Below the pieces are notes generated by a model. The model searched no databases, was not told the DNA's origin, and was given only the letters and a program-made list of their open reading frames with translations. From Acidimicrobiia bacterium (GTDB lineage: Bacteria > Actinomycetota > Acidimicrobiia > Acidimicrobiales > JANYDT01), in NCBI GenBank assembly GCA_031368215.1, contig JANLRD010000276.1, forward strand, positions 12,865 to 76,864: 64,000 bases of DNA, read 5' to 3'. Positions 2,965 to 52,147 of this stretch are shown in pieces. Position 1 is the first letter of the stretch. The number at the start of each line of letters is the position of its first letter. A program made the position numbers and the translations under genes.

Positions 2965-3078
2965 ACCATTGGTGCGACGAGGGCCGCGGGTGACCGCGGC
3001 CCTCGTTGTGCGAGTTGGTTGATCGTGAACGATCGACCAGAGTTGCGCTGATCCAGTTCGCTTCGGGAAGAGACCTCC

Positions 3079-3723: not shown

Positions 3724-3732
3724 GGGTCGCTC

Positions 3733-4599: not shown

Positions 4600-4621
4600 C
4601 CACCGCCACCAAGGAAGACCG

Positions 4622-5368
4622 ATGACCGACACCGCAAGCTCACCGCTGATCGTCGTCGACAAGCTCGACAAGTGGTTCGGCGATCATCACGTGCTCAAGG
4701 ACATCAACCTCGAGGTCGCCCGCGGTGAAGTCGTCGTCGTGATCGGGCCGTCAGGATCGGGCAAGTCCACCCTGTGCCGCTGCATCAACCGCCTCGAGCG
4801 GTTCCAGAAGGGCTCGATCACCATCGACGGCGCCACCCTGCCCGAAGAGGGCAAGGAGCTCGCGGCGCTGCGTGCCGACGTCGGTATGGTGTTCCAGTCC
4901 TTCAACCTGTTCGCCCACAAGACGATCGTGGAGAACGTGATGCTCGGACCCGTGAAGGTCCGCGGCATGGACAAGGCCGCTGCACGAGTCAAGGCGATGG
5001 GCCTTCTCGAGCGAGTCGGGATCGGCGACAAGGCGAACCGTCATCCGGCGGAGCTCTCCGGCGGACAGCAGCAGCGGGCTGCCATCGCACGCGCACTCGC
5101 GATGGACCCGAAGGTCATGCTGTTCGATGAACCGACCAGCGCACTCGACCCGGAGATGGTGAACGAAGTCCTCGACGTCATGCTCGAGCTTGCGTCGCAG
5201 GGGATGACCATGGTCGTCGTCACGCACGAGATGGGCTTCGCCCGGTCCGCGGCCAAGCGCGTCGTGTTCATGGACGACGGACGCCTCGTCGAGATCGCCA
5301 CGCCGAGCGAGTTCTTCGACAACCCGAAGAGCGATCGCGCTCGCGACTTCCTCTCGAAGATCCTGTAG
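4622..5368 (+). CDS. amino-acid ABC transporter ATP-binding protein (GlnQ/GluA-like)
   Basis: 248 aa. Walker [10 protein letters not shown], signature LSGGQQQR, Walker [12 protein letters not shown]. Confidence 0.95.
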
Positions 5369-5376
5369 CGCAGCGC

Positions 5377-6318
5377 TTGCCGCCCTCGTCTCCCATGCTT
5401 CGGTCGCCTGCGGTGTTGCGTCTGCACCGTCGACGCGCAGTCCTCCTCGGAGTCGCGGTCGCTGCGGCTGCGCTCGGTTCCTGTTCGAGTTCGTCGAAAC
5501 CGTCGGCGAACACCCTCGCCCTTCCGGTACCGGCTCCAGTCGATCGGATGAGTCGCCTCGACGCGATCCGAGCGAACAAGTCGATCACCGTCGGTGTGAA
5601 GGAAGACGTCCCGCTGTTCGGACTCCTCGACCCGAAGACCGGGCTGCTGAGAGGGTTCGACATCGAGATAGCCAAGGGCATCGCCAAGCGGCTCTTTCCC
5701 GAGGAGGACCCCGCCACCCGCGTACGGTTCGTCGAGGCGCTGTCGAAGAATAGGGAAGCCATGCTCCAGAAGGGGGCCGCCGACCTCGTGATCTCCACGT
5801 ACACGATCACCGATGCCCGCAAGCAGTTGGTCGACTTCGCCGGGCCGTACTACATCGCCGGACAGGATGTCCTCACGCGACGCGAGCTGATCGACAACGG
5901 GACGATCCGGGGAATCGATGACGTCAACGGCCGTAAGGTCTGCTCGGTCAACGGCTCGACATCGCTGCTCAACCTCCAGAGCGCGGCACCGAAGGCCGAC
6001 ATCTCGATCACCCGCGACAAGTACTCCGAGTGCTTCGAGGAGCTGCGCCAGGGACGCGTCGATGCGATGACGACCGATGACGTCATCCTTCTGGGTCTGG
6101 CCCTGCAGGACAAGCGCTTCGGGCTGACCGGAAACCCGTTCCGCACCGAGCCATACGGGATCGGCGTGCCGAAGGGTGACACCGAGCTGCGCACGTTCGT
6201 CAACGATGCGCTCGAGGACATGATCCGCACGGGCGAGTGGGCCGAGGCGTTCCGGTCCACCGTCGGCACCGCCGGCGTCCTCGTCCCCGCCCCACCGGCC
6301 ATCGACCGCTACGAGTAA
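5377..6318 (+). CDS. second polar amino-acid ABC substrate-binding protein, lipoprotein
   Basis: 313-aa ORF; an alternative ATG start lies at 5395. The signal peptide carries the lipobox AALGS-C. It is paralogous to the 2005..2964 product (DFAGPYYIAGQD, TTDD). Confidence 0.9.
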   Translation: MPPSSPMLRSPAVLRLHRRRAVLLGVAVAAAALGSCSSSSKPSANTLALPVPAPVDRMSRLDAIRANKSITVGVKEDVPLFGLLDPKTGLLRGFDIEIAKGIAKRLFPEEDPATRVRFVEALSKNREAMLQKGAADLVISTYTITDARKQLVDFAGPYYIAGQDVLTRRELIDNGTIRGIDDVNGRKVCSVNGSTSLLNLQSAAPKADISITRDKYSECFEELRQGRVDAMTTDDVILLGLALQDKRFGLTGNPFRTEPYGIGVPKGDTELRTFVNDALEDMIRTGEWAEAFRSTVGTAGVLVPAPPAIDRYE

Positions 6319-6322
6319 CGCA

Positions 6323-6502
6323 CTGGGAGAGAGGTTGCCCCTCTTTCCTTCGGCGCTGCGCCGCTCGCTCCGCTCGACTGCTCGCAACCCAAACGACCCC
6401 ACGGACTGGGAGAGAGGTTGCCCCTATTCGTGGGGGTCAAACACCTCCGAGCGTCGTTAGGAGGTGTTCTGCCCCCATAGATGGGGGCAACCTCTCTCCC
6501 AG
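6323..6502. repeat. composite REP/MITE-like structured intergenic repeat
   Basis: The 19-mer CTGGGAGAGAGGTTGCCCC occurs at 6323..6341 and 6406..6424, with its exact reverse complement at 6484..6502. Nested hairpins lie between the copies. The right half recurs at 24483..24545. Confidence 0.8.
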
Positions 6503-6568
6503 CACCAACACACGTGACAGCACGGGAAGCGTTCCCTCATCGGTCCTGACGATGGAAGACTGTTCGGC

Positions 6569-9286
<2,718 letters not shown>

Positions 9287-9342
9287 GCGCCTCCTGACCA
9301 AGGTTCCGTCGTCGGGGTCGACGGATCCGCTGGAACAGTCCG

Positions 9343-9382
9343 CATCATCTCTACAGAAGCAACATCATCTCCACAGGAGCAA
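9343..9382 (+). repeat. tandem 20-bp duplication of the leader/RBS of the downstream SDR gene
   Basis: CATCATCTCTACAGAAGCAA followed by CATCATCTCCACAGGAGCAA (18/20 identical), then cgcc-ATG. Only the second copy has an intact AGGAG. Confidence 0.7.
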
Positions 9383-9386
9383 CGCC

Positions 9387-10184
9387 ATGAGTCAGCCGTT
9401 CACCTCCGAGTATCCCCGTCCGAGTGAACTCTTCTCCCTTGCCGGCGACGTAGCCGTGGTCACCGGCGGCGGACGGGGCATCGGTGAAGGCATCGCCCGT
9501 ACGCTCGCCGCGGCCGGTGCCAAGGTCGTGGTCGCGGCCCGCCGCGAAGAGGAGGTGGAGGCCGTTGCCCGCCAGATCCGCGCTGACGGGGGCGAGGCCA
9601 TTGCCATCGTCACCGACGTGACCGACGATGCGGCTGTCGATGCGCTCGCGGTCGCGGCGAAGAACGCATTCGGCGCCCTGACCATCTGGGTGAACAACGC
9701 CGGCGGTTCATCGGCTCGGCTCCCGATGACCGAGCTGAGCCGGGCCGATTGGGACCACTGCATCGCCTTGAACCTCACGGCGGTGTGGGTCGGCATCGTC
9801 GCGGCGGCGAAGCACATGGAACGCGGCTCCATCATCAACATCTCCTCCGGGGCTGGAAGTGGACCGGTGCCGGGAAGCGGCCACTACGGTGCGTCGAAGG
9901 CGGGGGTCAACTCACTCACACAAACCGCGTCCGCCGAGTTGGCACCCCGGATCAGGGTGAACGGCATCGCCCCCGGCGTGGTCCCGACCGAGATCTTCCG
10001 CAAAGCACTCAGCATCGAGAACGACGACGATCTCGCCCGGGTCGAAGCACAGTGGAACATCCCCCTCGGCCGACTCGGGACGCCGCTGGACATGGGCTCG
10101 GCGGTGTTGTTCCTCTGCTCACCCGGAGCATCGTGGATCAGCGGCGAGACCCTTCGGGTGGGCGGTGGCGCAAAGCCCCGTTGA
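9387..10184 (+). CDS. SDR-family oxidoreductase (FabG-like)
   Basis: ATG at 9387 is preceded by AGGAG. Motifs VTGGGRGIG and YGASK. The ORF-track entry 9201..10184 extends upstream through non-coding-looking sequence. Confidence 0.85.
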   Translation: MSQPFTSEYPRPSELFSLAGDVAVVTGGGRGIGEGIARTLAAAGAKVVVAARREEEVEAVARQIRADGGEAIAIVTDVTDDAAVDALAVAAKNAFGALTIWVNNAGGSSARLPMTELSRADWDHCIALNLTAVWVGIVAAAKHMERGSIINISSGAGSGPVPGSGHYGASKAGVNSLTQTASAELAPRIRVNGIAPGVVPTEIFRKALSIENDDDLARVEAQWNIPLGRLGTPLDMGSAVLFLCSPGASWISGETLRVGGGAKPR

Positions 10185-10225
10185 CACCGGCTGCGACCTT
10201 GACCGACTTGGACCGGAGTACCTCA

Positions 10226-10241
10226 GCGGTCGGCTGACCGC
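10226..10241. terminator. GC hairpin between convergent genes
   Basis: GCGGTC-ggct-GACCGC lies between the SDR stop (10184) and the minus-strand small gene stop (10253). Confidence 0.4.
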
Positions 10242-10252
10242 CGTCGACGGGC

Positions 10253-10456
10253 TCAGCGCTTGGGCTTGAACGCCTTGTAGTTCCGGTTGCGGGCCTCGGC
10301 CAACGAGTCGGGGCCGAAGGTCGCGCCCTGCCCGGTTTCGACGATGTCGTCGATCACGATCTTCGGCGTGGCCGCGTCATCGAGGTCGTAGACGATCTGG
10401 GTGCGCTTGTCGCCCAGATAGCGGAAGTGTTCGAAACGGGTGGGACGGCCGGACAT
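10253..10456 (-). CDS. small conserved-looking hypothetical protein (67 aa)
   Basis: Internal ATG start (MSGRPTRFEHFRYLGDKRTQIVYDL...) of the 91-aa track ORF. GC3-rich coding signal. I recognise no family. Confidence 0.55.
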   Translation of the reverse strand: MSGRPTRFEHFRYLGDKRTQIVYDLDDAATPKIVIDDIVETGQGATFGPDSLAEARNRNYKAFKPKR

Positions 10457-10518
10457 GGGTCCAGTCTCGCACGGGGCACCGGGCCGATCTCGAATCGGCA
10501 GTGGGGCGAACGCGAACC

Positions 10519-10770
10519 GGGAGCACACCCGAAGGCGCGCTCCCGATCCAAGTACTGCACTGGTAATGACTCACGCGTGAGCCAACGGCATCGGAGGGGA
10601 CCAGCATCCGAACAGCGAGCGTGAGGGTGGCCGGCGTTGGATTCGCCAGCGGGTCCAGCTGTGCCGACTAGCGGCCAGCCACCTCCAGGGTCCCAAACAG
10701 TTGACTAGCGGAAATTTGGACCACCTCCTTTCTCTGGTGTCGCCATACTGCCACCAGAGATGGGTGGATG
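10519..10770 (-). ncRNA. candidate structured RNA or long structured leader (unassigned family)
   Basis: Roughly 320-nt gene-free gap. Minus-sense folds contain G-U pairs that become C-A mismatches on the plus strand. Elements: nested hairpin 10721..10767, a 13-14-bp helix 10623..10635 / 10673..10686, and an 11-bp stem capped by a cUUCGg tetraloop at 10519..10544. Confidence 0.3.
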
Positions 10771-10779
10771 CCAGGAATT

Positions 10780-11205
10780 TTACGTCGTTGAGTCCGCCGA
10801 CGGCCCGATCGCTCCGATGGCCACGAGATAGTTCAGCTCGCCGTCGAGCACCGCCTTCACGTGGGCGGGGTCGATGTCACGGCCGAGGGCCAGCATCCGC
10901 ATCACCAGCGCGTCGACGGAGTCCTCGTCGCCGACGACGACTGGTTTTCCGTCGGGTCCGAGCGAGGTGGCGACGCCACGCATGCCGAGATCGCTGAGAT
11001 GCCAGTCGACGATGTCGCGGACGTCTCCATAGGTGATCTGCGCGCGTACTTCATCGGGAAGGCGTGCTTCGATCCAAACAACGGCCTCGGTCAGGTCGAA
11101 GACCGGCTCGGGGGTGAGGTTGTCAAGTCGACGGGTTTCCCGTCCGATCATCACCGCCGCGGTGATGAAGACGAGGACGGCAGCGAGAACGGCATAGGGA
11201 ATCAT
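10780..11205 (-). CDS. hypothetical membrane-anchored protein
   Basis: 141-aa ORF with an N-terminal TM (IPYAVLAAVLVFITAAVMIG). It lies immediately downstream of ftsY on the same strand. Confidence 0.6.
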   Translation of the reverse strand: MIPYAVLAAVLVFITAAVMIGRETRRLDNLTPEPVFDLTEAVVWIEARLPDEVRAQITYGDVRDIVDWHLSDLGMRGVATSLGPDGKPVVVGDEDSVDALVMRMLALGRDIDPAHVKAVLDGELNYLVAIGAIGPSADSTT

Positions 11206-11222
11206 CGCAGGGCACAGATCGA

Positions 11223-12374
11223 TCAGGGCGTGAAGAGCGCATCGACGTAGTCGTCCGGGTCGAACGGCACGAGATCGTTGACGCCTTCACCGAGACCGAC
11301 GAGCTTGATCGGAATACCGAGCTCGGTCTGGATGGCGAAGGCGATGCCGCCCTTCGCCGTGCCGTCGAGCTTCGTCAACACCACACCGGTGATGTCGGCC
11401 ACATCGGCGAACTGCTTGGCCTGCACGAGGCCGTTCTGCCCGGTTGTGGCGTCGAGCACGAGAAGGACCTCGGTGACCTTCCCCGGTTCGCGATCGGCGA
11501 CGCGTCGGATCTTGCGGAGTTCCTCCATCAGGTTCGTCTTCGTCTGCAGACGTCCTGCGGTGTCGCCGAGGACGAGGTCGAAGCTGCGAGACGCGGCCTT
11601 CTCGACGGCGTCGAAGATGACCGAGCCGGGATCGCCGCCCTCCGCCCCGCGCACGAGGGTGGCGCCGGTGCGCTCGGCCCACATACCGAGCTGTTCGGCT
11701 GCCGCGGCGCGGAAGGTGTCACCGGCGGCGACGACGACGGATCGGCCCGCTTCGATCTGCTGCTTGGCGACCTTGCCGATGGTCGTGGTCTTGCCGACAC
11801 CGTTCACCCCGACAAAGAGCCACACGTTGGGCCGACCCGGCTCGAACCGCAAGCTGCGATCGGCCGACACGAGCTGTTTCTTCAGATCCGACTTGAGCGC
11901 CTCGATCAGCTGCTCCGACGTCGAGATCGACTCCGACTTCACCCGCCGCCGCAGATCGTCGAGCAGGGCCGTCGTGGTGCCGACACCGACGTCGGCGAGC
12001 AGCAGTGCTTCCTCGAGGTCGTCGAACGACGCCGCGTCGATCTTCGACCGTCCGAGAACGGAGCCGACCGCTCCCCCGAATGCCGACCGGGCCCGACTGA
12101 GCCGGTCACGGAAGCTCGGCTTCTCCGCGGGCTCCGGGGTGGCAGAGGCCGGCTCCTCCGGCGTGTCGATGACGTCGACAGGGAGCAGGTCGGCTACGGC
12201 ATCGACCGCGGCGTCGGGCCGGATCTCCGGCGGCACCGACCGGGGTCGGGGCGGCTCGACCGGACGGGGCGGCTCCGCTCGGAGCGCACCAGCGCGACGG
12301 GACCGCACGACGGCGACACCGACGACCGCGACCACCAGCACCGCGACAAAAAGACCGATCAGGAGCACTTCCAC
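11223..12374 (-). CDS. ftsY: signal recognition particle receptor FtsY
   Basis: SRP-GTPase motifs GVNGVGKTTTIGK, DTAGR and TKLDGTAKGG. An N-terminal TM and a Pro/Glu-rich region are present. The start is placed at GTG 12374 (VEVLLIGLFV...); the track ORF runs to 12530. Confidence 0.9.
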   Translation of the reverse strand: MEVLLIGLFVAVLVVAVVGVAVVRSRRAGALRAEPPRPVEPPRPRSVPPEIRPDAAVDAVADLLPVDVIDTPEEPASATPEPAEKPSFRDRLSRARSAFGGAVGSVLGRSKIDAASFDDLEEALLLADVGVGTTTALLDDLRRRVKSESISTSEQLIEALKSDLKKQLVSADRSLRFEPGRPNVWLFVGVNGVGKTTTIGKVAKQQIEAGRSVVVAAGDTFRAAAAEQLGMWAERTGATLVRGAEGGDPGSVIFDAVEKAASRSFDLVLGDTAGRLQTKTNLMEELRKIRRVADREPGKVTEVLLVLDATTGQNGLVQAKQFADVADITGVVLTKLDGTAKGGIAFAIQTELGIPIKLVGLGEGVNDLVPFDPDDYVDALFTP

Positions 12375-24556: not shown

Positions 24557-25396
24557 TCAGCGGGAGGACTGGCGGATCAGTTCGTCGAAGAGGGATTGGT
24601 GGGCGGGGTCGGTGGCGGCGGTGCGCTCCGGGTGCCACTGGATCGCCAGCATCCACCCGCGTTCGCCGGCGTCGGCGAATTCGACCGCCTCGATGACGCC
24701 GTCGCTACTACGCGCGCTTACGACAAGCCCCTCACCCACGCGTTCGACGGCCTGGTGGTGGTAGCTCCAGCAGTTCGCGATCGACGTCGCACCACCCTGC
24801 GTCTTCGCCAGCAGCGACCCCGACTCGACGGCCACTTCGTGGAGCGCCTTGCCGGCACCGGGCTGGCCGTGGTCGATGAGGCCGGGGCGACCGGTCAAGT
24901 GCTGATCGAGGGTGCCACCCAGCGCGACATTGAGCACCTGCATCCCCCGGCAGATCGCCAGGAGGGGCAACTCGGCTCGCACGGCTGCCTTCGCGAGAGC
25001 AATCTCCAAACCATCGCTCGCCGCATCGACGCCGTAGACACGCTCATGGGGCTCGGCGCCGTAGAGCGCCGGATCGACGTCGCCGCCACCGACGAGGATG
25101 AGGCCGTCGAGGCGTGACACCAGGTCGTCGGCCTCGTGGTCGGACAGCGCCCGCGGGGCGATGATCGCCTCCATCCCCCCCGCCCGCCACACGCCGTCCA
25201 AGTAGGTGTGCTGCATGACCGACGAATGGGTGTCGGGCCAGCCGGACACCTCACCGGGTTTGCGAGGACGGGCGCTCACTCCGATGAGCGGACGAGCCCC
25301 CGCGCGTTTCGTCGACACCGCAGGGCGTGGAGCGGCAACCGCGTCTGCCGCGTCGGTGGTCCGGCCACCGGGGACGGGGGAAGTCATGGCCTCCAT
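24557..25396 (-). CDS. class I glutamine amidotransferase / peptidase C26 (gamma-glutamyl-GABA hydrolase PuuD-like)
   Basis: 279 aa. The nucleophile elbow is LLAICRGMQVLN and the His motif is IQWHPE. Confidence 0.85.
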   Translation of the reverse strand: MEAMTSPVPGGRTTDAADAVAAPRPAVSTKRAGARPLIGVSARPRKPGEVSGWPDTHSSVMQHTYLDGVWRAGGMEAIIAPRALSDHEADDLVSRLDGLILVGGGDVDPALYGAEPHERVYGVDAASDGLEIALAKAAVRAELPLLAICRGMQVLNVALGGTLDQHLTGRPGLIDHGQPGAGKALHEVAVESGSLLAKTQGGATSIANCWSYHHQAVERVGEGLVVSARSSDGVIEAVEFADAGERGWMLAIQWHPERTAATDPAHQSLFDELIRQSSR

Positions 25397-25457
25397 TGTG
25401 GCCGCTTGGACACCAAGGGGTCACGTTCTCTGCGTCACACCGTGGTCAGATGGGTGG

Positions 25458-27122: not shown

Positions 27123-28505
27123 TTACCAACGTTCGAAGTTGCGTCGCAGCTCCCAGTCGGTGACGGCCTTGTTGAACTGCGACCATTCGTGGCGCGCCGT
27201 GGTGAGCATGTGGTGGTGCACCTCCTCGCCGAACGCCGACTTGGCCACCGCGGAGCCCTCGAAAAGCTCGATGGCCTGCACGATGTTCCACGGAATCCGG
27301 GCGACGTCCTTCGACTCGTAGGCATTGCCGACGAACGGGTCGGCCAAGGACAGCTTGTGCTCGATTCCGTGCAGACCCCCGGCAATCACCGCGGCGAAGG
27401 CCAGATACGGGTTGGCGTCGGCTCCCGGAATACGGGACTCGACGCGGGTACCGGCGCCGTGGCCGACAAGGCGAAGACCGCAGGTCCGGTTGTCCCTTCC
27501 CCACGCCACCGCAGTGGGCGCCCACGAGCCGAGCTGGTAGCGCTTGTACGAGTTCACCGTCGGTGCGAACATCCACGACAGCTCGCGTGCCGTTGCCACC
27601 ATGCCAGCGAGGTAGCTGGCGAAGGTGTCGGAGAGATGGTGCGGGCCGTGCCCCGGAGCGGCCGGCTCATCGGTTTCGGCGCTCCACAGCGACGTGTGGA
27701 TGTGACACGACGACCCGACGTCGGCCATGGAGTACTTCGCCATGAACGTGATCGCCCGCCCGCTGAGCGCAGCGATCTCCTTGGCCCCGTTCTTGTAGAT
27801 CGCGAGGCGGTCGGCCATCTCGAGTGCCTCGGTGTAGCGGAGGTTGATCTCGTGCTGGGCAAAGCCGGCCTCACCTTTCGAGCACTCGATCGGGACCCCC
27901 GCCCCTTCCATGCCGTTGCGGATGGCCCGGATGATGTGCTCATCCTTGGTCGTCTGGAGGATGTGGTAGTCCTGGATCGTGTTGGAGTCCGGCGTGAGGT
28001 TGGCGTAGCCCTTCGCCGCGGCCGACTCGAAGCTCTCCTTGAATAGGAAGAACTCGAGCTCGGCTCCCATCTTCACAGTGAACCCCATCGCCGCCGCCCG
28101 GGCGAGCTGGCGCTTGAGGATCTGGCGTGGTGACACCTCGATGGGGCCGTTGTCGTCGGCCAGATCGCAGATCACCAGTGCGGTCTTCTCCAACCACGGG
28201 ATGAGCCGAAGCGTGGCGAAGTCGGGCACGCAGCGCATGTCGCCGTACCCCGCGTCCCAGTTGGCGAACCGGTAATTGGGCAGCACATTCATCTCGACAT
28301 CCGTGGCGATCAGGTAGTTGCACGCCTCGATGCCGTGGAGAACGGTGTCGTCGAGGAAGAACCGGCCGGTCATGCGCTTGCCCTTCCACGATCCGGCGAG
28401 ATCGGGGAACACGACGAGCACGGTGTCGATCTCGTTGCGTTCCACTCCCTCACGCAGTTCGTGGATGGCGAGGTGCGGGCGGGTCGAGTGGGCAGGGCTG
28501 TCCAT
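27123..28505 (-). CDS. glutamine synthetase family protein (GlnA3/PuuA-like gamma-glutamyl ligase)
   Basis: 460 aa from ATG 28505 (MDSPAHSTRP...). Motifs: ELEFFLF, KGEAGFAQHEIN, GSSCHIHTSLW. Confidence 0.88.
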   Translation of the reverse strand: MDSPAHSTRPHLAIHELREGVERNEIDTVLVVFPDLAGSWKGKRMTGRFFLDDTVLHGIEACNYLIATDVEMNVLPNYRFANWDAGYGDMRCVPDFATLRLIPWLEKTALVICDLADDNGPIEVSPRQILKRQLARAAAMGFTVKMGAELEFFLFKESFESAAAKGYANLTPDSNTIQDYHILQTTKDEHIIRAIRNGMEGAGVPIECSKGEAGFAQHEINLRYTEALEMADRLAIYKNGAKEIAALSGRAITFMAKYSMADVGSSCHIHTSLWSAETDEPAAPGHGPHHLSDTFASYLAGMVATARELSWMFAPTVNSYKRYQLGSWAPTAVAWGRDNRTCGLRLVGHGAGTRVESRIPGADANPYLAFAAVIAGGLHGIEHKLSLADPFVGNAYESKDVARIPWNIVQAIELFEGSAVAKSAFGEEVHHHMLTTARHEWSQFNKAVTDWELRRNFERW

Positions 28506-28571
28506 GACGGAAGTTCTAGTCCCGCCGGGGAACGTCGCGCCGAACCGGTCCAGCTCGGCTAAACACGAGGG

Positions 28572-29183
28572 GTGGAATTGGACTTCTGGATCGACCCTGT
28601 CTGACCGTGGTGTTGGCTGACGGCCAGGTGGGTCGTCGACGTCGCACCGCATCGCAAGCTCATCATCCGCTGGCGGCCGATCAGCCTGTACTTCAAGAAC
28701 AACGTGCAGCCGGACTCGCCCTGGCACGAGCGCAGCTTCCACAATCACCAGCTCCTGCGGGTGCTCGAGTCCGTCAGAGCCGAACACGGCGAGGGTGCCG
28801 TGGCCAAGCTCTACTTCTCGTTCGGCGAGAGGATCCACGACAAGGGCGAGGGCTTGATCGATCCGGCGCCGTCGCTCGAGGCCTGCGATCTCCCGGCCCA
28901 CCACGCCGCGGCGATGACCGACGATTCGTTCGACACCACGATCCGGTCATCGATGGACGAAGGGCTCGCTCTCACCGGCGACAATGTCGGCACACCGATC
29001 CTCGGTTTCGAGAACGACATCGGCAAGAAGGTCGGCTTCTTCGGGCCCGTCATCAGCCGACGGCTCAAGCACTACGACGCGCTCCAGATGTGGGACGGGA
29101 TCATCGCCATGGCGGGGATCGACGCCTTTTGGGAACTCAAGCGCACGAGGACCGAAGCACCGAACTTCACTCCGGTCGAGTAG
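28572..29183 (+). CDS. DsbA-like mycothiol-dependent reductase (Rv2466c/Mrx-2 family) interrupted by, or recoding, an in-frame TGA at 28602..28604
   Basis: The frame reads VELDFWIDPV-TGA-PWCWLTARWVVDV...FWELKRTRTEAPNFTPVE. The TGA aligns with the first Cys of the family's CPWC active site. The ORF track shows only the downstream part, 28704..29183. Confidence 0.7.
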
Positions 29184-29258: not shown

Positions 29259-30812
29259 TCAGCTCAGAGACGACAGCTCATGTTCGATGGCCATCAACTC
29301 TTCCCGGGTTCCCTGGACTTTCGGGCCGTGGAACCAGTTCCTTGCTGACGCGAACCACCAGATGCCAACGAGGACTCCGATGCCACCGACCACCGGAAGC
29401 GTCAGGTTTGCCGTCTCCCACTTGTTCCACGGCACGAACTGCGGCAGCACACCGATGAGGCAGATCCCGAGCACGTAGATCACCGCGAACCAGCCGACGG
29501 CCTTGCTGCGATTGCCGAGGTGCCACGGTCCCTTCTGGAAGTCGGGATTGCGCAGCCGGAGGTAGACCGGAATGATGTAGCTGATGTAGAGCCCGATCAC
29601 GCACATCAGCGTCAGGGCAAAGAACGCCACCGGGATGGCCTTTTTCGTCTGGATCAAGGTGAGCGAACCGGCGATCGCCGAGAGCACCACGCCGAACCAG
29701 ATCGAGTTTGTTGGCGTGCGGGTGCGAGGGTTGATGCGGTGCCAGAACTTCGAACCCGGCAGGCCGTCGTCGCGAGAGAACGCGTAGATCATTCGGCTGT
29801 TCGCCGTGACCGATGCCATGCCGCAGAAGAATTGGCCGACTGTCGCAATGATCACGAGCAGCTTGCCGAGGAACCCGGCGATCGACATGGTGAACACCAG
29901 CGCACCGGCGAGGATGCCGCCGGCCGCGATCTCGTCGTACTTGCCCTTCGGAATGGCGATGAGCATCGCGGCGTTCATGAGCAGAGCGGCGATCGCCGAA
30001 ATCCAGATCGACCGCACGATGGCCTTCGGAGCGCTGGTGGCGGCGCCGTGGGTTTCCTCGCTGACGTGCGCCGAAGCGTCGAAGCCGGTAATCGTGTACT
30101 GGGCGAGAAGAAGGCCGACCAGGCCAACGTAGAGGCCCGATCCGGGGAAGCTCCAGCCGGTGGTGTTCTTGAAGTCGAAGATGCCCGTGGTACCGGTCTT
30201 GTTCTTTCCCGCGAGCAGAAGAGCGCCGACGATCACCGCCACCCCGATGACGTGCCACCACACGCTGATGTCACCCAGGAGCTTCACGAGCTTCACGCCA
30301 TAGGTGTTGAGCAGACCGTGAACCGCCAGCAGGATCAGGTAGGTGACGTAGACGGTCCACTTCGTCGGCCGCAGATCGTCCCAGCCGAGCAGCTTGAAGC
30401 TGTAGAGCACGTAGTTGGCAAGCGCCCAGTCGACCGACGCGATGACGCCGATCTGGCCGACGAGGTTGAACCACCCGGTGAACCAGGACCACATCGCACC
30501 GTTCTTGCGGGCGAGCTTGGCTGACCAGTAGTAGAGACCACCTGCGGTCGGATAGGCCGAGCAGATCTCCCCCATCGACGCGCCCACGGCGAGCGCGCCG
30601 ATGCCGACGATCACCCAACCGAGGAGGATGACGCGTGGGCCGCCGGCGAACATGCCGAGCGAGAAGCTCGTGAGTGCACCCGCGAGCACCGAGATGATGG
30701 AGAAGCTGATGGCGAAGTTCGAGAACGTCCCCATGCCTCGGTGAAGTTCCTGGGCATAGCCCAGTTCGTGCAATCGGTCTCTATCGGCATTGGAAGAGCC
30801 GTCTTTGCTCAT
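29259..30812 (-). CDS. APC-superfamily amino-acid/polyamine permease
   Basis: 517 aa with about 12-13 TM segments. N-terminal motif FSNFAISFSIISVLAG...ICSAYPTAGGLYYW. Confidence 0.9.
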   Translation of the reverse strand: MSKDGSSNADRDRLHELGYAQELHRGMGTFSNFAISFSIISVLAGALTSFSLGMFAGGPRVILLGWVIVGIGALAVGASMGEICSAYPTAGGLYYWSAKLARKNGAMWSWFTGWFNLVGQIGVIASVDWALANYVLYSFKLLGWDDLRPTKWTVYVTYLILLAVHGLLNTYGVKLVKLLGDISVWWHVIGVAVIVGALLLAGKNKTGTTGIFDFKNTTGWSFPGSGLYVGLVGLLLAQYTITGFDASAHVSEETHGAATSAPKAIVRSIWISAIAALLMNAAMLIAIPKGKYDEIAAGGILAGALVFTMSIAGFLGKLLVIIATVGQFFCGMASVTANSRMIYAFSRDDGLPGSKFWHRINPRTRTPTNSIWFGVVLSAIAGSLTLIQTKKAIPVAFFALTLMCVIGLYISYIIPVYLRLRNPDFQKGPWHLGNRSKAVGWFAVIYVLGICLIGVLPQFVPWNKWETANLTLPVVGGIGVLVGIWWFASARNWFHGPKVQGTREELMAIEHELSSLS

Positions 30813-30969: not shown

Positions 30970-33060
30970 CTACAAGCGCGTCACTTCGACGAGCGTGTCG
31001 GAATACGCGACCCCGCCACCGAAGCTCGTGAGGGTGTCGTTGGTCAGCGAGTTCGCCGTTCTCCCATCGGAATGATCCGTGCTTGCCCATCCGAACGGCA
31101 CCGCCACGACACCGGGACGCACCGTCGTGCCAATACGCGCCGTGAGCGTGAGGGACGAGCGGTTGTTGAAGACGCGCACCGTGTCGCCGGCGGCGATCCC
31201 ACGGGCCGAGGCGTCGGCGTCGGAGAGTTCCACGTACGGCCCACCTTCGCGGCCGCCGTGATTCGGCAGGTGGGCATACGACGAGTTGAGGAAGCGGGTG
31301 TGGACCTTCGGAGTCATGAGCGACAGCGGGAACTCGGAAGCTCCCGCGCCGTGAGGACCTTCGATCGACGGCACATACGTGGCGACGAGACCGAGGCCGG
31401 ACCGCTCCATGGCCTCGGATGACAGCTGGGCCCGTCCGTCGGGGGTCGCGAAGCCCCCCTTCTCGAACGGTCGGTAGTCCTCGGCGATGTTGAGGCGAAC
31501 CGTCCCTTCTGCCTGCAGACGTTCGAGGGTGACGCCTTCGGCGAACTCGTGTCCGGAGGCCAACGCCAGCTCCAGCAGCTCGTCGTCGGTGGCGAAGAGT
31601 TCGAGTTCGGTGTAGCCCATCGCTCCCGCGAGACGGCGGAACAGTTCGCTGTTCGACACCGACTCGCCGAGCGGGGCGATCGCGGCTTGGTTCCAATTGA
31701 GGTGCATCGATCCCCACGACGGCGTGATGTCGTTCGCCTCGATGTGGGTTGCCGCAGGCAGGACGATGTCGGCATAACGGGCAGTGTCGGTGATGAACAC
31801 TTCGTGCACCACGGTGAAGAGGTCGTCGCGCTCGAGACCTTGACGGATGGCGTCGGCGTTCGGAAGAGTCACCGCCGGGTTGAAGTTCCACACCACCAGT
31901 GCTGAAACACGAGGCGTCAGTGTGTCATCAGTCAGCCAGCGTCCGACCTGGTTCTGCGAAAGCGATCGCGAACGCGTGGCAGCCCTGAGGCTCGGGGCGG
32001 CAATCGAGCCGATCGCATCGCTGGTATAGGTCCCAACGGAGCGCGACATGCCGCCGCCTCGATGGCGCCACGAACCGAGCAGCACCGGCAGGGCGGCGAG
32101 AAGGCGGAAGAACTGGGCGCCGTGCTCGCGGTGTTCGGCACCGATGACGGTCCGGAAATGAACCGGCGGGGCGGTCGCCACCACCCGGGCAAAGTCCTCG
32201 ATTTCGGCGACCGTAAGCCCACATACCTCTGCGGCGCGTGCCGGAGTCCAGTTCGCCGCTTCGGCAACGAGGTCGTCGTACCCCGACGCGTAACTGTCGA
32301 CGTAGGCGTGGTCGATGCGGGCGTCGCGGACGAAGATGTAGATCAGCGCGAGCATCAGGGCGACGTCGGTGCCGGGAAGAGGCTGGACGAACACGTCGCT
32401 GCTCTCGGCCGTCATCGTACGGAGGGGGTCGATACAGATGACTGACGCACCTTTAGCGCGCGCTTCTTCGATGAAGGGCCAGAGATGACGGTTGGTGAGC
32501 CTCGTGTTCGTGCCCCACAACACGATGCACTTGGCATGGCGGACCTCCACGGGATCGGCGGCACGCCCGGAACCGTACGTCGCCGCCGTACCAACGCCTG
32601 CCGCTTGTCCGCACACGGAATCGACCATCCGGGACGCGCCGAGACGGTCCATCAGTCGCTGGTGGGCGTGCATGGCCAGCACGCTCTGATTGCCGGCATC
32701 CCACAGCGGCATGATTCCCTCGCCGCCGTCACGTTCGATGATCGACGTCCACCGCTGGGCGATCTCGGCGAGCGCCTCATCCCAGGAGATCGGCTCGAAC
32801 CGACCCTCACCCTTCGCCCCGACCCGTCGCAGCGGGGTCAGCACGCGGTCAGGGCTGTAGACCCGATCGAGATACCGGTTGACCTTCGCGCACAGCTCGC
32901 CCCGGGAGAACGGATGCTCGGGGTTGCCGCGCATCTTGGTGGCGCGGTCTGGCCCGCCTTCGGGGTCGGACGCCACCGTGACGATCCAACCGCAGGAGTC
33001 GGGGCAGTCGTGATGGCAGACACCGGTGACCGTTCGCATACTCGAAACGGTAGACGTCAT
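30970..33060 (-). CDS. molybdopterin (MopB-family) oxidoreductase with an N-terminal 4Fe-4S motif
   Basis: 696 aa. CHHDCPDSCGW...C cluster, with a molybdopterin-binding domain and a C-terminal barrel region. There is no in-frame TGA. Confidence 0.88.
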   Translation of the reverse strand: MTSTVSSMRTVTGVCHHDCPDSCGWIVTVASDPEGGPDRATKMRGNPEHPFSRGELCAKVNRYLDRVYSPDRVLTPLRRVGAKGEGRFEPISWDEALAEIAQRWTSIIERDGGEGIMPLWDAGNQSVLAMHAHQRLMDRLGASRMVDSVCGQAAGVGTAATYGSGRAADPVEVRHAKCIVLWGTNTRLTNRHLWPFIEEARAKGASVICIDPLRTMTAESSDVFVQPLPGTDVALMLALIYIFVRDARIDHAYVDSYASGYDDLVAEAANWTPARAAEVCGLTVAEIEDFARVVATAPPVHFRTVIGAEHREHGAQFFRLLAALPVLLGSWRHRGGGMSRSVGTYTSDAIGSIAAPSLRAATRSRSLSQNQVGRWLTDDTLTPRVSALVVWNFNPAVTLPNADAIRQGLERDDLFTVVHEVFITDTARYADIVLPAATHIEANDITPSWGSMHLNWNQAAIAPLGESVSNSELFRRLAGAMGYTELELFATDDELLELALASGHEFAEGVTLERLQAEGTVRLNIAEDYRPFEKGGFATPDGRAQLSSEAMERSGLGLVATYVPSIEGPHGAGASEFPLSLMTPKVHTRFLNSSYAHLPNHGGREGGPYVELSDADASARGIAAGDTVRVFNNRSSLTLTARIGTTVRPGVVAVPFGWASTDHSDGRTANSLTNDTLTSFGGGVAYSDTLVEVTRL

Positions 33061-45778: not shown

Positions 45779-48700
45779 TCAGCGCTTCGGCGCCGTCACC
45801 GTGACAACGGTTGGCGCCGAACGGCCGTAGACACTTGTCCGGTACATCTCTTCGGCATGGGTCGGCGCGGCGACGAACCGTCCCGGAGCAGTGGCCCGAG
45901 CCGTGTAGGTGTAACGGAACGTACCGGGCTCGAGCTGCGTGGCGAAGAGCAGCACGCGATCGTCTCGCACCTCGGTGTGATCGACACCTGCGGACTCCGC
46001 GGTCGAGACGCCATCGGTGGAGTCGACCGTTGGGGTGGACCCGGTGTCGCCGCTGCCCTCCGTCGATCCGGTCGCCGTGGACACCAACTTGGCGTCGAGC
46101 GCCTCGAAACCGGCGGGGAGCGCGTCGTCGACGACGACGTTGCTGCGACGGTCGGGCGTCGTGACGATCAACTCGACCGTTACCAGGTCACCGGCGGCGA
46201 ACGTCGTCGCCGGCCTTCCGAAGATCGATTTGACTCCGTTGTACGGGAAGTACGAGCGCTCGACGCTGAACCCCTGATTGCGGGCTTTGAGCGTCTCGGC
46301 AGGAAGGGCATAGCGAAGCTGCGCGGACCAGTGGAGCGTGCCCTGGCCCTTCGCCGCGGCCGCGAGCGGGAAGCTCGCCGCGCCGAGGTCACGCAAGGGG
46401 AACTGCGTCGACACGACGTCGAGCGAGGTCGGTCCGAGCTTCTCGGTGAGGGCGACTGCGCCGGCCTTGACCAGGGCATCGATCGACGGCTTCACCTTTT
46501 CGCTGAACCGGGCGATGTCGGTGAACGACCGGAGCACGGCCCCGTTGCTGTAGGTGTCGCCCCACGTGCCGTTCGTCCGCTTGTTCAACAACCAACGAGA
46601 CATCGGCGCGATGAGCGGATGGTAGGGGTCGACCTTCGTCAGCAGCGAGAGAAGGTCGGCGGTTGCCACGACGGAGCCCGAGCCCCGGTACGAGAACCAC
46701 GAGCCGTACCAGTCCTCCGGTGCCTCCACCGACGCCTCGTCGCCGTCGAGGCGCACCGAGGCGAGCAGGTCGCGGAACAGCCGTTCCGGGACCGTTCCGG
46801 TGTCACCTGCCGCGAGCATGGCATCGAGCAGCGCAACCTGCTCGGTGTAGGGCACCGAGTCGTCAGCCGCAAGCTCATTGGCGAGGGTCGTGACGAGACC
46901 ACGTTCGGGCCGACCGGCACGAGCGAGTACCGCAGCCACCGTGGCTCGCGCCGTGGTGATGTCGCCGGCGCCTTCCTGACCGTCACCGGTGGTGAGATCG
47001 CGGACCTGGCCACTGAGGTGATCACGAAGCTGGGCGATCATGCCGGGCGGCGTCCGGAACTTCGCTGCCCGGGCTTCGAGCAGAAGATCGAGCACCTTTG
47101 CGGTCAGGAACGTGTCGCTCACCGTCCCGCCAGGCCAGTACGACAGTCCTCCGTCGTCGGCCCAATACTGCGTCAGGTTGTTCAGCTCGGCCTGGACGCG
47201 CGTCTTCAGGGCAGCGGGAGCCAACCCGGGCAGCTCGTAGCGGCCCTCCAGGGACGACAGCGCCAAGATGACCTTCAATCGTGACGAGCGCTGCTCCAGG
47301 CATCCGTACGGATAGTCGACGAGCGACTCGACCGATTCCTGGAGACCGGCGAGGTTCGACGACGACACCCGGAGTGTCAGTCCACCGACGCCGGCGATGG
47401 CTCCGGCCGGCACCTTCACGGTCTCGACCGGACCCACCGCGCCTGCGGCTGTGGCCTTCACCTGTCCGGACGTGGCGACGGTATCGAAGCGCTGCGTGAG
47501 CAGCACAGGGATCGATGCGGCCGCGGCGTCCTTCGTCCCGGGCGACGAACCGTCGCCGAAGGTGCCGCGCAAGGTCAGCGCGGCATCGCCGAGTTTCGTT
47601 GCTCGCAGGGTGAAGCGGACCTCCGTCGGTGAGGACCCCAACGCCGGCAGCGTGATGCTCTTCGGTCCATCGAGCGTGAGGGGGCTGTCGGCCGGAAGGT
47701 CGAGGGTGACGGTGGCCGGCCCGGTGGTGCCGGAAAGGTTCTGGACCACGGCGCCGGCCTCAAACCGGTCGCCGATCGACACGAAGCGAGGCAGCGCCGG
47801 ACGAACCTGGAAGGGGGTCGAGATGCGAAGTTCGGAATCGTCGGAGCCGAAGCGGTCTGCGCCACTCGTGGCCACGGCGATCACGCGGTAGGCCGTGAGG
47901 GACTCTGGCAGCTTCAGCGCCACGGTGGCCTCGCCGTTGTCTCCGACCTTCACCGAAGCAGACCAGGCGGCGAGGATCCGGAAGTCGGTTCGGACGCCGT
48001 TGCCAGTGTCGTCCTCACCGCCGCCACCACCAGGCTCGGGGGAGAACGCCGGCGCGGCGTCGCCCTTGGCGGCGTCGGCGAACTCGTCGGCACCGACCTT
48101 GACCAGTCGCATGCGGCTGTCGCTGGTGCTCACGTCGAGATTGCGCTGCTCATAGAAGGCGCTCAGGAGATCGGGTGTTTGGTAGTTCGTGAGCCGGAGC
48201 ACCCCCTCGTCGACCGCCCAGAGGGTCACTTCACCGGAGGCGGGCTTGCCGTCGGCACCGACGACTTTGACGGTGGCGGTGCCCTCGGCACCGGGGAGGT
48301 ACTCCTTGCGGTCGGCCGACACCGCTACCTTGAGCTTCTGCGCGGTCGGCGGCACCGGCAGGTTCACCGAACCGGTGAGCACCGCGGGTCTCCCCCGGTC
48401 ACCGTTGGTCGACGCCATCGGTTCCGTCCGCCCCTTCGTCAGCGTGACCGACGCGTAGACGTTCGGGGTGAACTCGGCGGCGATCGGCACATCGATCACC
48501 GCGGCCGAACTCGTCACCTCGAATCGCCGGGCCTCGACCACACCATTGCGCTCGAGCGTCAGGAGACCCGATGCCTTCGTCCACGGTGACTTGATCAAGA
48601 TCTTGGCCGTGTCGCCGGCGGCGTAGGTTTGCTTGTCGGCGACCAGTTCGACGGTCGGCGAGTCGCTGTTCTCCTCCCACGCGACTTCGCCGGCACCGAT

Positions 48701-51700
48701 CACGTAGTCGATCAACCCGGATTCGAGATAGTTCTGCCGGGCGTCGGAACCGAAGACCCGGATCTCGTAGGTACCCGGCTTGTCCGGCGTGAACGCGACC
48801 GTGGTCGCCGCATCAGCCGTCGACGTGAATTCCTTCGAGCCGATCTCCTTCTCGCGCCATCCACCTTCCCTGACCCGGTCGCCGTTGGACGAAACCCGCT
48901 CCACCGAGACCCAGTCCCACCGGAACAGCTTCGCCGTGCCCTTGACCGCACCGATCACGGCACCCTTCGGCGTGGCCGCAACGATCTCTGCGGTGAGGGC
49001 CTTGCCGGCGCGGGCGAACGAACCGGTCCGACGGACGCCGAAGCTGAACTCACCGGGGTAGACGATGGTCGTGGCCCGGGCGGCGAAGGCCTGCCGGCTG
49101 ACGTCGGAGACCTCCGCCTCGAAGGTGACTTCGAGCGGACGGTGACGTCGGGTTTCGACGGGAAGTGAACCGGTGGCAGTGGTGACACCGCCGGCGCCGA
49201 TCGTCTCCGGGAGCGACGCGTTCGTCAGCTCGTTCGGCGTGTCCGGTGCGCATGTGTTGTTCACGTCGTAGAAGCACTGGTAGTCCCACGAGAACGAGTT
49301 CGGGTCGAGGCCTTTGACCTTCACCGGCGGGGACATGTAGGACGCGTAGATGCCGACGTTCCAGCGGACGGATCCGTCAGCGAGGGGCGCGCCGAAGAGG
49401 TATCGACTGGTCGCCGTGGCACTGAGGTCGTCGCCGCGGATGGCCTGCGCGCCGGCCTTCACGTCGACCACGAAGTCCGGTCGACGGAACGACGTGACGA
49501 GGAACGAGGCGTACGCGCCGGGAACGTTCACGGAGTACACGCCTTGGGATGCCCCGGAGGGAACGGCGAAGGCGAGGTCGAACGATCCCGCCGGCGAGAC
49601 CTTCACCGATCGCCGGACGATGCGTGCACCACGACCGTCCTGCACGGTCAGCGGGAGTTCCACGATCGACTTCGGAAGCGCGCTTAGCTTCTCGAGCTCC
49701 TCCATGCGGAGGACACCCTTCACATGCACGCGGTCGCCGAGGCGGTACACGCCGCGGTCGGTGAACATGGAGCCCTTGAGCGTGGCACCGGGGGTCAGCT
49801 TGGCATCGAGGGCCAGTCGCTCCTTTCGATCGGCGAGCTCTTGGGCCGAGGCCGAGCTCTCGTCGAACTCGTAGGAGTAGTCGTCGCCCCACGTCCGCCA
49901 GCGGGTCTGGGCGTATGCCGTGTCGTCGGTTCCATCGGTCTTTGCTTCGACGATGGCGACGACGTCGCACGAACCGCAGCCGCGGTCAGGATGCGGCGGA
50001 GCGGTGACGACACCGTCGGCGTTCGTCTTGCCCGACCAGTAAGAGGCCTTGCCTTCGGCGAACAGCGAGATGGACGCACCCTTGACCGGTTCGCCCGTGG
50101 ACAGCGAAGTGACCGCGACGACGACGTTCGACCGCGAGGCCTTGAGTGTCACGCCGAGGTCGGTCCGCTGCACCAGCATGACCTGCCATCCGGTGACGCC
50201 GCCGACGTCGCGGTCACGTCGCGAGCCGAGCGTCACGAACGGTGTCCCGTTGCCGTTGTAGCGCGAGCCCGGGACGATCGCTCCCGGGCGCACGGCGACG
50301 AGGAACACTCCACGTTCCTTCTTCGCAGTGGCGTCCTTGGCCGCTCCACCGAGACGAACCGACTGGATACCCGTCTGATCGGCGGCCTTGCCGATCGGAA
50401 TCGCCCGCGGCGTCTCCTTCGCCAGCGACAGTGGCTTCGCCTTCGGCAGACCGGCGTAGGACCGGGCGATCTGGACGATGTCCGCCGGAGCGACGGTGCG
50501 CGAGATCACGTCGAGCGAGGTCACGTTGCGGACCCTCGTTCGAATCGACGAAACCGTGGGCTCGACGACGAGCTCACCGCCCGGCACCTGGGTGAACGTG
50601 GACAGCCGACCGAAGGTGACGAGCCGAACGGCGTCGTAGCCGAGGGTGCCGTCGAGCGTCGGCGTGTCCTTGCCCACCGTGATCTCATACGACCGACCAG
50701 GCTCGAACGTGGCCCAGTTGAGCTGCAACACGTCGCTGCTCGAGAGGTCGTCCGACGCGTCCGCCGGGGTCACATACGTCGTGACCGCATTTGTCTTTGT
50801 GTTACGTACACGTATCATTCCGTCGAGCGCCCGACCGAGCGGACTCACGCCGAGGATGTCCAAGGGCTTGAGCGACTCGGGGTCGCAACCCTTTCGACAG
50901 CCACGGGTCACCAGGAATGGGGTTCGGAGCGTGGCCGGACCGGCGACCGCGCGAGGGAGCGCGGCAAGAGGTCCGGCGTCGGACACGATCCCGGAACCGA
51001 GCACCGCCCAGATGCGGGCATCTGCCGGCGGATTCTTCTCGAGCGAGACCACCGTGCAGACCCCGGACTGCGGGTCATCGACGTTGCACCGCTCGTCGCG
51101 CAGGAACGACACCTTCGACGCCACCGTTGTGCGCGTGGCGGTGGCGGCGAGGCGGTCCTCGAACGCCTGCGTGCCGGCAGGGTCCTTGGCCCGCATCACC
51201 GCGAGTTCGTCGACGGTGGGACGGTACCGATCCATGCTCACCTTGACGGGCCGGAACTCCATCGTCGTGTTTGCTGCCAGCACCTCGCCTCGGACGTTCG
51301 GAACGCACGTCAGCCGGAGCGTGCGCAGTCCAACGTCGGCTGTCTGAACGCCTTCCGCACCGGAGAAGGAACACTGTGGACGCGGCGTCTCGAATGTGGT
51401 GGTCGAGGGAGTCGCCAGCGTCGTGCCGTCGAGGGCCTTCAATCCGCTCACGGTGACGGTGAAGGCCGTGGCGAGTGGGAGCGCGCGTTTCGGCTCGAAC
51501 AGCAGCGTGCGGGTGGACGCCCATCGAAAGGCCCCGACGACCGGCGGGGTGATCTTCACGAATGGCGATGGATCGAGCTGTCCGCCGATGTCGCCGAGCG
51601 CCGCCACGGGCCGGTCGAACAGCCAGCGCAGGACCGTCCGATCGGCTGTGCGCAGACGGCCGGTCGGGGTCGCCAGCGCCACGCGAAGCGCTGCATCAGC

Positions 51701-51913: not shown

Positions 51914-52147
51914 AGCCGTCCTTGTCGTGGCCCGTTCGTCGACGGGACCGGGTCCCACGTTCACGTGTGGTTTCCGGTCCCCTACGCCCACGGGGTGTGT
52001 TCTAGCCGTTCAACCGGCTCGGTTGTAGGACGCCGCCCGGCGGGAATCCGGTTCCCGGTTCTTCGACTCGGCTTCCCTCGGCGTTCGGTCGCCACACTGA
52101 GCGAGAAAGTCCTTAGGTGTTCTTCCCCGGATGCCGATACTTCGTCC

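Follow-up and report, generated by a model that had tools for sequence, protein, structure and literature searches.

An Rv2466c-like gene of Acidimicrobiia with a conserved in-frame TGA that is very probably a selenocysteine codon

In a 64,000-nucleotide stretch of an Acidimicrobiia genome (assembly GCA_031368215.1, contig JANLRD010000276.1, positions 12,865 to 76,864), which was analysed as a whole and is called the window below, a frame of 203 codons starting at GTG 28572 is interrupted on translation only by a TGA at 28602–28604. From the comparison of orthologous sequences this TGA is very probably a genuine and conserved selenocysteine (Sec, U) codon, and the gene an intact selenoprotein gene. 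The TGA is conserved, the hairpin that follows it is conserved and constrained, the full frame is under purifying selection, and the product is homologous to the reductase family of Rv2466c (mycoredoxin-2, Mrx-2). A reading made earlier from the letters of the window (the sequence-only reading) had suggested a U-P-W-C selenoprotein, and this is strongly supported by the presence of TGA at the same codon in 50 species-level genomes together with a conserved structure downstream of it. The features of the gene, all on the plus strand, are the following, where SECIS denotes a selenocysteine insertion sequence.

28572..29183, plus strand: complete predicted selenoprotein gene for an Rv2466c/Mrx-2-like DsbA-fold protein with Sec at residue 11 (translation, PF22234, PDB matches, dN/dS).
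28572..28574, plus strand: GTG start codon (ATG at the aligned position in the relatives L001–L005).
28602..28604, plus strand: in-frame TGA, very probably read as Sec (U11), opposite the nucleophilic Cys of CPWC (structure alignment with Rv2466c; 50 of 70 loci).
28602..28613, plus strand: predicted redox motif U-P-W-C, TGA CCG TGG TGT (translation and orthologous loci).
28618..28638, plus strand: bacterial SECIS-type hairpin (energy, conservation of pairing, compensatory changes, frozen four-fold sites).
28607..28650, plus strand: optional lower-stem extension, GUGGUGU 28607–28613 with GCACCGC 28644–28650 (minimum free energy (MFE) fold of 28602–28650, -24 kcal/mol).
28989..28997, plus strand: G-T-P of the conserved cis-Pro loop of the thioredoxin fold, DVGTP (V128, G129, T130 and P131 invariant in the homologue alignment; aligns with the motif in 4zil).
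29127..29156, plus strand: C-terminal family signature FWELKRTRTE (invariant or nearly so in the homologue alignment; aligned to FFELKRTRTE of Rv2466c).

The frame is preceded by an upstream stop, TAA 28560–28562, and GTG 28572 and TTG 28578 are the only start codons between this stop and the TGA. In the five closest relatives (L001–L005) an ATG aligns to GTG 28572 and a CTG to TTG 28578, indicating that 28572 is the start, and a GAGG at 28567–28570 ends 1 nt ahead of the GTG. The N-terminus reads VELDFWIDPV, followed by the TGA and then PWCWLTARWVVDVAPHRKLIIRW, and the frame runs to the C-terminal end FWELKRTRTEAPNFTPVE and the stop TAG 29181–29183. The sole piece of it in the mechanical list of open reading frames (ORFs) is one of 159 aa from GTG 28704, at 28704–29183, which continues the frame with no further stop. 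The G+C content of third codon positions (GC3) is 0.80 over the ten codons before the TGA and 0.91 after it. The coordinates of the start codons, the TAA, the TGA and the frame had been given correctly in the sequence-only reading, and its GAGG, its 159-aa continuation of the frame and its GC3-rich coding character on both sides of the TGA were all found again. TGA is also used as an ordinary stop elsewhere in the window, where 16 of the 33 likely genes terminate with it.

With Cys substituted for the TGA-encoded residue in profile searches, the protein matches PF22234 (Rv2466c-like) over profile positions 1–180 of 180 with 128.7 bits (cut-off 27) and an E-value of 3.6e-37, while PF01323 (DSBA) scores 23.9 bits, under its cut-off of 25.6, and over residues 3–49 only. 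No NCBIfam model matches the protein. The structures of Rv2466c and its relatives in PDB (4zil, 4nxi, 5xur and 4wkw) are aligned over the full length with E-values of 1e-32 to 1e-38, residues 4–200 of the window protein corresponding to residues 12–207 of the solved structures at an E-value of about 1e-38. The TGA is located opposite the first Cys of CPWC in 4zil and 4nxi, and U-P-W-C constitutes residues 11–14. Both the assignment to the Rv2466c/Mrx-2-like family and the placing of the TGA precisely at the nucleophilic Cys, as proposed earlier, are thereby borne out by the profile and the structure alignments. A DsbA-like fold, that is a thioredoxin fold with a helical insertion and a cis-Pro loop, is expected for the product at the level of sequence.

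In a first search of a collection of 5.8 billion proteins, the hits with 80–90% identity to the window protein are all N-truncated gene calls of 140–174 aa, a second group with 55–62% identity consists mostly of proteins that begin with MTSRW..., right after the motif, and full-length hits at about 59% identity carry CPWC. Orthologous DNA was collected from one-genome-per-species GTDB representatives, giving 72 loci, nearly all from metagenome-assembled genomes (MAGs) of Acidimicrobiia/Acidimicrobiales, of which 70 cover the N-terminus. TGA is found at the identical codon before PWC(W) in 50 of these 70, and TGC or TGT in the other 20. In amino acids the TGA forms are 43–97% identical to the window protein, and M-x-[LI]-[DE]-F-W-x-D-P-x, the peptide before the TGA, is open and in frame in every one of them. 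The TGA is also present in many metagenome contigs, and its recurrence at one codon goes far beyond chance. Three TGA-form loci (L013, L054 and L056) have U-P-F-C in place of U-P-W-C, which shows that the motif can vary at its second variable residue.

Compared with L001–L005, which are 72–92% identical to the window in nucleotides over aligned segments, the full 203-codon frame has a dN/dS of 0.048–0.125, and the ten codons before the TGA show synonymous changes only. Synteny with the window extends over 17.4 kb in one of these relatives, L003, at 88% nucleotide identity.

A hairpin of 8 bp is located directly downstream of the TGA, with the 5' arm UGACGGCC at 28618–28625, the apical loop AGGUG at 28626–28630 and the 3' arm GGUCGUCG at 28631–28638. 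It has a folding energy of -11.9 kcal/mol and a z-score of -2.9, and the spacing from UGA to loop is 21 nt. A consensus model for the bacterial SECIS (bSECIS) has a stem of 4–16 bp, a UGA-loop distance of 16–37 nt, an MFE of -7.5 kcal/mol or lower, and a small apical loop in which a G precedes a G or U (PMC13188914). The window hairpin agrees with it on all four counts, with its 5-nt loop with G at position 2, its 8 bp, its 21 nt and its -11.9 kcal/mol. No Rfam family matches at gathering scores, and around the site there are only chance snoRNA hits on the opposite strand.

All TGA forms have the hairpin; in the Cys forms it is weak or missing. When the T of the TGA is numbered 1, the stem is formed by nucleotides 17–24 with 30–37, and the loop by 25–29. 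Over 44 distinct TGA-form sequences 97.4% of the cells are paired, against 16–71% in controls where the 3' arm was slid. Pair 18–36, with third codon positions on both sides, is G-C in 41 of 41 sequences, and pair 21–33, formed by the third bases of a Thr codon and a Val codon, is the sole pair that varies on both sides (G-C in 41 sequences, or in 38 by a second count, and C-G, U-A and G-U in one each). In the 50 TGA-form genes, entropy at the four four-fold degenerate sites of the hairpin is 0, 0.28, 0.44 and 0.53 bits, compared with mostly 1–2 bits at the other 40 such sites; the four hairpin sites rank 1, 2, 3 and 5 of the 44 with a chance probability of about 4e-5. In the 20 Cys forms the hairpin columns pair in just 30–60%, the mean folding energy is -4.4 kcal/mol versus -12.6 kcal/mol in the Sec forms, and the third position of the Thr codon has an entropy of 1.19 bits. 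The loop of the TGA forms is invariably [C/A]-G-[U/G]-U-G, being CGUUG or CGGUG outside the window, and CGC, the commonest choice in the Cys forms for the Arg codon in question, is never used to supply it. A comparison of Sec with Cys orthologues for frozen synonymous sites can in this way validate a bSECIS even where classical covariation is scarce.

Serine replaces alanine at the third residue after PWCW in one sub-clade (L006, L007, L008, L010, L013, L014, L018, L061 and L064), where a U-U or U-C mismatch at nucleotides 22/32 gives a 1x1 internal loop in the middle of the stem and the remaining pairs are kept.

The lower-stem extension is complete in the window's own clade only, with a partial version in L008, L010, L061 and L064, and in the alignment its 3' partner is unconserved beyond these. 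The sequence-only reading had placed a stem-loop further downstream, between GGTG 28627–28630 and CACC 28645–28648. Both tetranucleotides are present, although the pairing between them is unconserved, with 71.6% paired cells against 71.0% in the slid control, and its 5' arm is the apical loop of the conserved hairpin. In the MFE fold the CACC pairs instead with GGUG 28609–28612, that is, in the lower stem.

Several results weigh against a Sec codon. For Sec machinery, the survey of the window's own genome covered the 64 kb of the window, and tblastn was run with E. coli SelA, SelB and SelD sequences, which served as probes only. No selA, selB, selD or tRNA-Sec is found in the window, which otherwise carries housekeeping genes (among others for pyruvate dehydrogenase E1, FtsY, SMC, PlsX, alanyl-tRNA synthetase and chorismate synthase), and none within 10 kb on either side of the gene in the other loci, save selD in two. 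ARAGORN detected no tRNA-Sec in the window plus the 72 loci (1.19 Mb). Nor was a second selenoprotein gene found in the window or the loci: a search of both for an in-frame TGA with a two-sided coding signal, a redox motif and a hairpin gave only junk frames and terminators. The covariation in the hairpin is thin, as it consists of one pair with two double changes and one G-U, and the conserved peptide T-A-R-W-V-V-D also fixes part of the hairpin sequence. Since the hairpin is nearly invariant, the case for the RNA element depends mainly on the freezing of synonymous sites and on how the Sec forms differ from the Cys forms.

The two loci with selD are L028 and L042, both Acidimicrobiales MAGs, where selD is the divergent neighbour of the gene at a distance of about 140 nt. 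It belongs to a fusion gene in both:

L028 7618–9870, minus strand, and L042 7629–9896, minus strand: 750-aa fusion of a pyridine-nucleotide-disulfide oxidoreductase (TIGR03169, 'Nterm_to_SelD') with SelD (TIGR00476), by NCBIfam.

The fusion passes the selD equivalog TIGR00476 with 268 bits (cut-off 125), and its active site has Cys, not Sec. The adjacency of selD and the UPWC gene may reflect a functional link between selenophosphate synthesis and the selenoprotein. A metagenome scan with the SelD fusion gave 80 loci at 34–54% identity, none with the UPWC gene. In one metagenome contig of 509 kb (ERZ1740070.2, L115), selA, selB, tRNA-Sec and a SelD-type fusion are clustered at 4278–12073; its SelA is 44% identical to that of E. 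coli, indicating that the contig is probably not from Acidimicrobiia and is uninformative on the lineage.

Published surveys list Ca. Microthrix parvicella, Ilumatobacter coccineus and I. nonamiensis as positive for SelD, SelA and SelB, with 7, 15 and 10 known selenoproteins respectively, and Acidimicrobium ferrooxidans as negative (Peng et al. 2016, PMC5029168, Tables S1 and S2). The TGA form of the gene is present in MAGs assigned to Microthrix (L029 and L044) and Ilumatobacter (L070). All 84 complete genomes of Actinomarina, also of the class Acidimicrobiia, contain selC, selA, selD and a divergent selB (bioRxiv 10.64898/2026.04.03.716425). Sec decoding is documented for the class Acidimicrobiia, not for the window's genome.

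Sec insertion, as well as the reductant and the substrates of the protein, we infer as follows. Translation would begin at GTG 28572, and the ribosome would not terminate at UGA 28602–28604, where the hairpin at 28618–28638 may function as a bacterial SECIS with putative SelB binding and recruit SelB-GTP-Sec-tRNA(Sec). Sec would be inserted as residue 11 and translation would go on to TAG 29181–29183. The predicted product, 203 residues long, is a cytoplasmic oxidoreductase with a DsbA fold that belongs to the Rv2466c/mycoredoxin-2 family and has U-P-W-C for C-P-W-C. By analogy to Rv2466c, the U11 selenolate would attack a mixed disulfide (for instance an S-thiolated protein) or a small oxidised substrate, after which C14 or a low-molecular-weight thiol, perhaps mycothiol, might resolve the selenenylsulfide.

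A conserved TGA could also be a real stop behind a 10-residue leader, with the hairpin as a regulatory or re-initiation element for an N-truncated protein, and this has a slim probability. The gene callers do give N-truncated products of 140–195 aa, and in a few loci an ATG or GTG follows soon after the motif. In the window, however, the first in-frame start past the TGA is 28704, 34 codons downstream, and a product from there would lack the whole active-site strand and helix, C14 included; the position of the next start differs among clades (residues 16, 24, 30, 40, 45 and 64). The supposed leader contains F-W-x-D-P-x, which is the conserved beta-1/active-site lead-in of the Cys homologues and collinear with them, and the TGA aligns exactly with the catalytic Cys.

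Read-through without Sec, for instance by near-cognate Trp or Cys insertion helped by the hairpin in hosts that lack Sec machinery or have lost it, is about as improbable as the leader. Downstream hairpins can stimulate read-through in general, and Sec machinery is not demonstrated for the window's genome. Against this, the hairpin fits the SelB-type bSECIS model in loop, stem length and spacing, related genera are SelA/SelB/SelD-positive, and selD adjoins the gene in two loci; moreover, a UGA that pairs with Cys at a redox-active position is the usual mark of a Sec codon (PMC1088965, PMC13188914).

A fresh nonsense mutation or a sequencing or assembly error (TGC/TGT to TGA, in a pseudogene or a gene with a real Cys), which the sequence-only reading had held to be equally possible and for which one base change is enough in a family with Cys forms in 20 of 70 loci, is excluded for practical purposes by the identical TGA in 50 independent species-level genomes and many metagenome contigs, the dN/dS of 0.05–0.125 on the full frame, and the synonymous-only changes before the TGA in five relatives that were assembled from different samples.

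With the TGA taken as a Sec codon, the distribution of the two forms can be followed in a neighbour-joining tree without support values. There the TGA forms fill a large clade of Acidimicrobiia, the Cys forms are nested within it in at least three places (L009/L011/L012/L015/L019/L021; L055/L057; L023), and the outgroups, from other Actinomycetota, are of Cys type (CPFA/CPFS and CPWC). This fits an old Sec form that was repeatedly replaced by Cys, with the direction of change unproven on these sequences, and suggests that with each conversion from Sec to Cys the hairpin was lost and the synonymous sites were relaxed. We give roughly even chances to the broader proposal that the Sec form of Rv2466c/mycoredoxin-2 is an uncatalogued, distinct selenoprotein family, predominant and probably ancestral across soil, freshwater, marine and wastewater Acidimicrobiia, with several reversions to Cys, and N-truncated in nearly all public records. 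If this is true, a selenium-dependent reductase for low-molecular-weight thiols would be a core feature of a large and mostly aerobic class of actinobacteria, and the enzyme family that activates tuberculosis prodrugs would come with a natural Sec/Cys pair.

Among the top 120 hits in each of two protein searches, calls that are N-truncated (140–195 aa) and have lost the active site number about 25 with the window protein as query and 79 with an Ilumatobacter-type query. The 79 carry the names 'disulfide bond formation protein DsbA' or 'Mycothiol-dependent nitroreductase Rv2466c', and the TGA was confirmed in one of them (L154). Thousands of family members were retrieved in either search, and a family model with a Sec exception would repair a large number of records. 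Selenoproteins are usually held to be rare in aerobes (PMC13188914). Sec would be the common state of the Rv2466c-like enzyme across Acidimicrobiia, and a redox enzyme found widely in this abundant and mostly aerobic class would be added to the known uses of selenium. The Sec and Cys forms, 51–60% identical, are a natural pair to probe what selenium contributes to an Mrx-2-type mixed-disulfide or nitro reductase, and the Mrx-2-type family activates antitubercular prodrugs.

A glutamine-synthetase-like gene and a gene for an amino-acid permease flank the selenoprotein gene, and a gene for a peptidase C26 of gamma-glutamyl hydrolase type lies close by. This set looks similar to a Puu-like cluster for the catabolism of gamma-glutamyl amines, and the arrangement is kept in L003 with 88% nucleotide identity. 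These neighbours and other features of the window are:

27126–28507, 24560–25420 and 29262–30812, minus strand: the set of glutamine-synthetase-like gene, peptidase C26 and permease.
30973–33060, minus strand: molybdopterin oxidoreductase of 696 aa with an N-terminal Fe4S4 domain.
45782–52009, minus strand: bacterial alpha-2-macroglobulin-like gene of 2076 aa with MG2, bMG3, bait-region, A2M and bMG10 domains.
3052–3723 and 3724–4599, plus strand: two same-frame ORFs split by a single TAG, both with BPD_transp_1 ABC-transporter permease domains.

The molybdopterin oxidoreductase was considered as a Sec formate dehydrogenase and ruled out, having no in-frame TGA and 23% identity to FdhF. Recoding of the TAG between the two permease ORFs was likewise rejected, since both contain BPD_transp_1 and are ordinary adjacent genes.

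Of the known systems, Rv2466c of M. tuberculosis (Mrx-2; PF22234; 4nxi, 4zil and 5xur), a mycothiol-dependent mycoredoxin-2 reductase and nitroreductase with mono- and dithiol mechanisms (PMC6178380), is collinear with the window protein over the full length at an E-value of about 1e-38. The two share the F-W-x-D-P-x-[C/U]-P-W-C-W lead-in, the DVGTP cis-Pro loop and the ELKRTRTE tail, and the window protein, too, is expected to have a DsbA-like fold and to act as a cytoplasmic reductase. They differ in that the window protein has a UGA-encoded residue for the nucleophilic Cys and a SECIS-type hairpin within the coding sequence, that the host belongs to Acidimicrobiia and not to Mycobacteriales, and that the identity between them is merely moderate. 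The Cys orthologues within Acidimicrobiia (for example P0008, P0010, P0019, L009, L011 and L012) show 51–60% identity over the full length, the same length and CPWC at the same place. In contrast to the window gene they have TGC or TGT for TGA, no stable hairpin (-4.4 versus -12.6 kcal/mol), free third-codon variation in the hairpin stretch, and T-S-R-W-x more commonly than T-A-R-W-V-V.

The SECIS of E. coli fdhF type and the bSECISearch model resemble the window hairpin in being a stem-loop within the coding sequence directly 3' of the UGA, with a small loop of G then G/U, a spacing within 16–37 nt and an energy below -7.5 kcal/mol. The window hairpin is unrelated in sequence to the fdhF type, has no bulged U that could be identified and matches no Rfam family.

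DsbA-like selenoproteins with UxxC were first found in the Sargasso Sea (Zhang et al. 2005, PMC1088965), in line with the sequence-only reading, which had mentioned such proteins from metagenomes. They were later listed for 41 organisms (Peng et al. 2016, PMC5029168) and appear as 'form 1, PF01323' in a 2026 inventory of 119 selenoprotein families, from which PF22234 is absent (PMC13188914). No paper that joins Rv2466c with selenocysteine was found in the literature, the titles and abstracts of papers on mycoredoxin and selenoproteins mention no Sec form of the Rv2466c family, and among the 240 best database hits there is no full-length protein with U and none annotated with Sec. Form 1 (UxxC; PF01323/COG2761) and the window protein share the DsbA-like thioredoxin-fold superfamily, a Sec at the N-terminal CxxC position (assigned from the TGA in the window protein), U-P-W-C, which is present in six published Sargasso sequences, and a bacterial SECIS or SECIS-type hairpin just downstream. 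Six near-full-length Sargasso sequences that were compared match PF01323 over their entire length with 50–105 bits and none matches PF22234, and their similarity to the window protein in BLASTP is limited to 16 residues around the motif. The window protein has the UxxC of form 1 and lacks its full-length PF01323 domain, and the contrast in profiles and BLASTP indicates a different family of the same superfamily that shares one active-site solution with form 1 and would act like it. Earlier surveys might have counted the gene silently under 'DsbA-like', for instance among the 15 selenoproteins of Ilumatobacter. The gene represents a separate subfamily of an already known kind of selenoprotein, in a lineage already known for its use of Sec.

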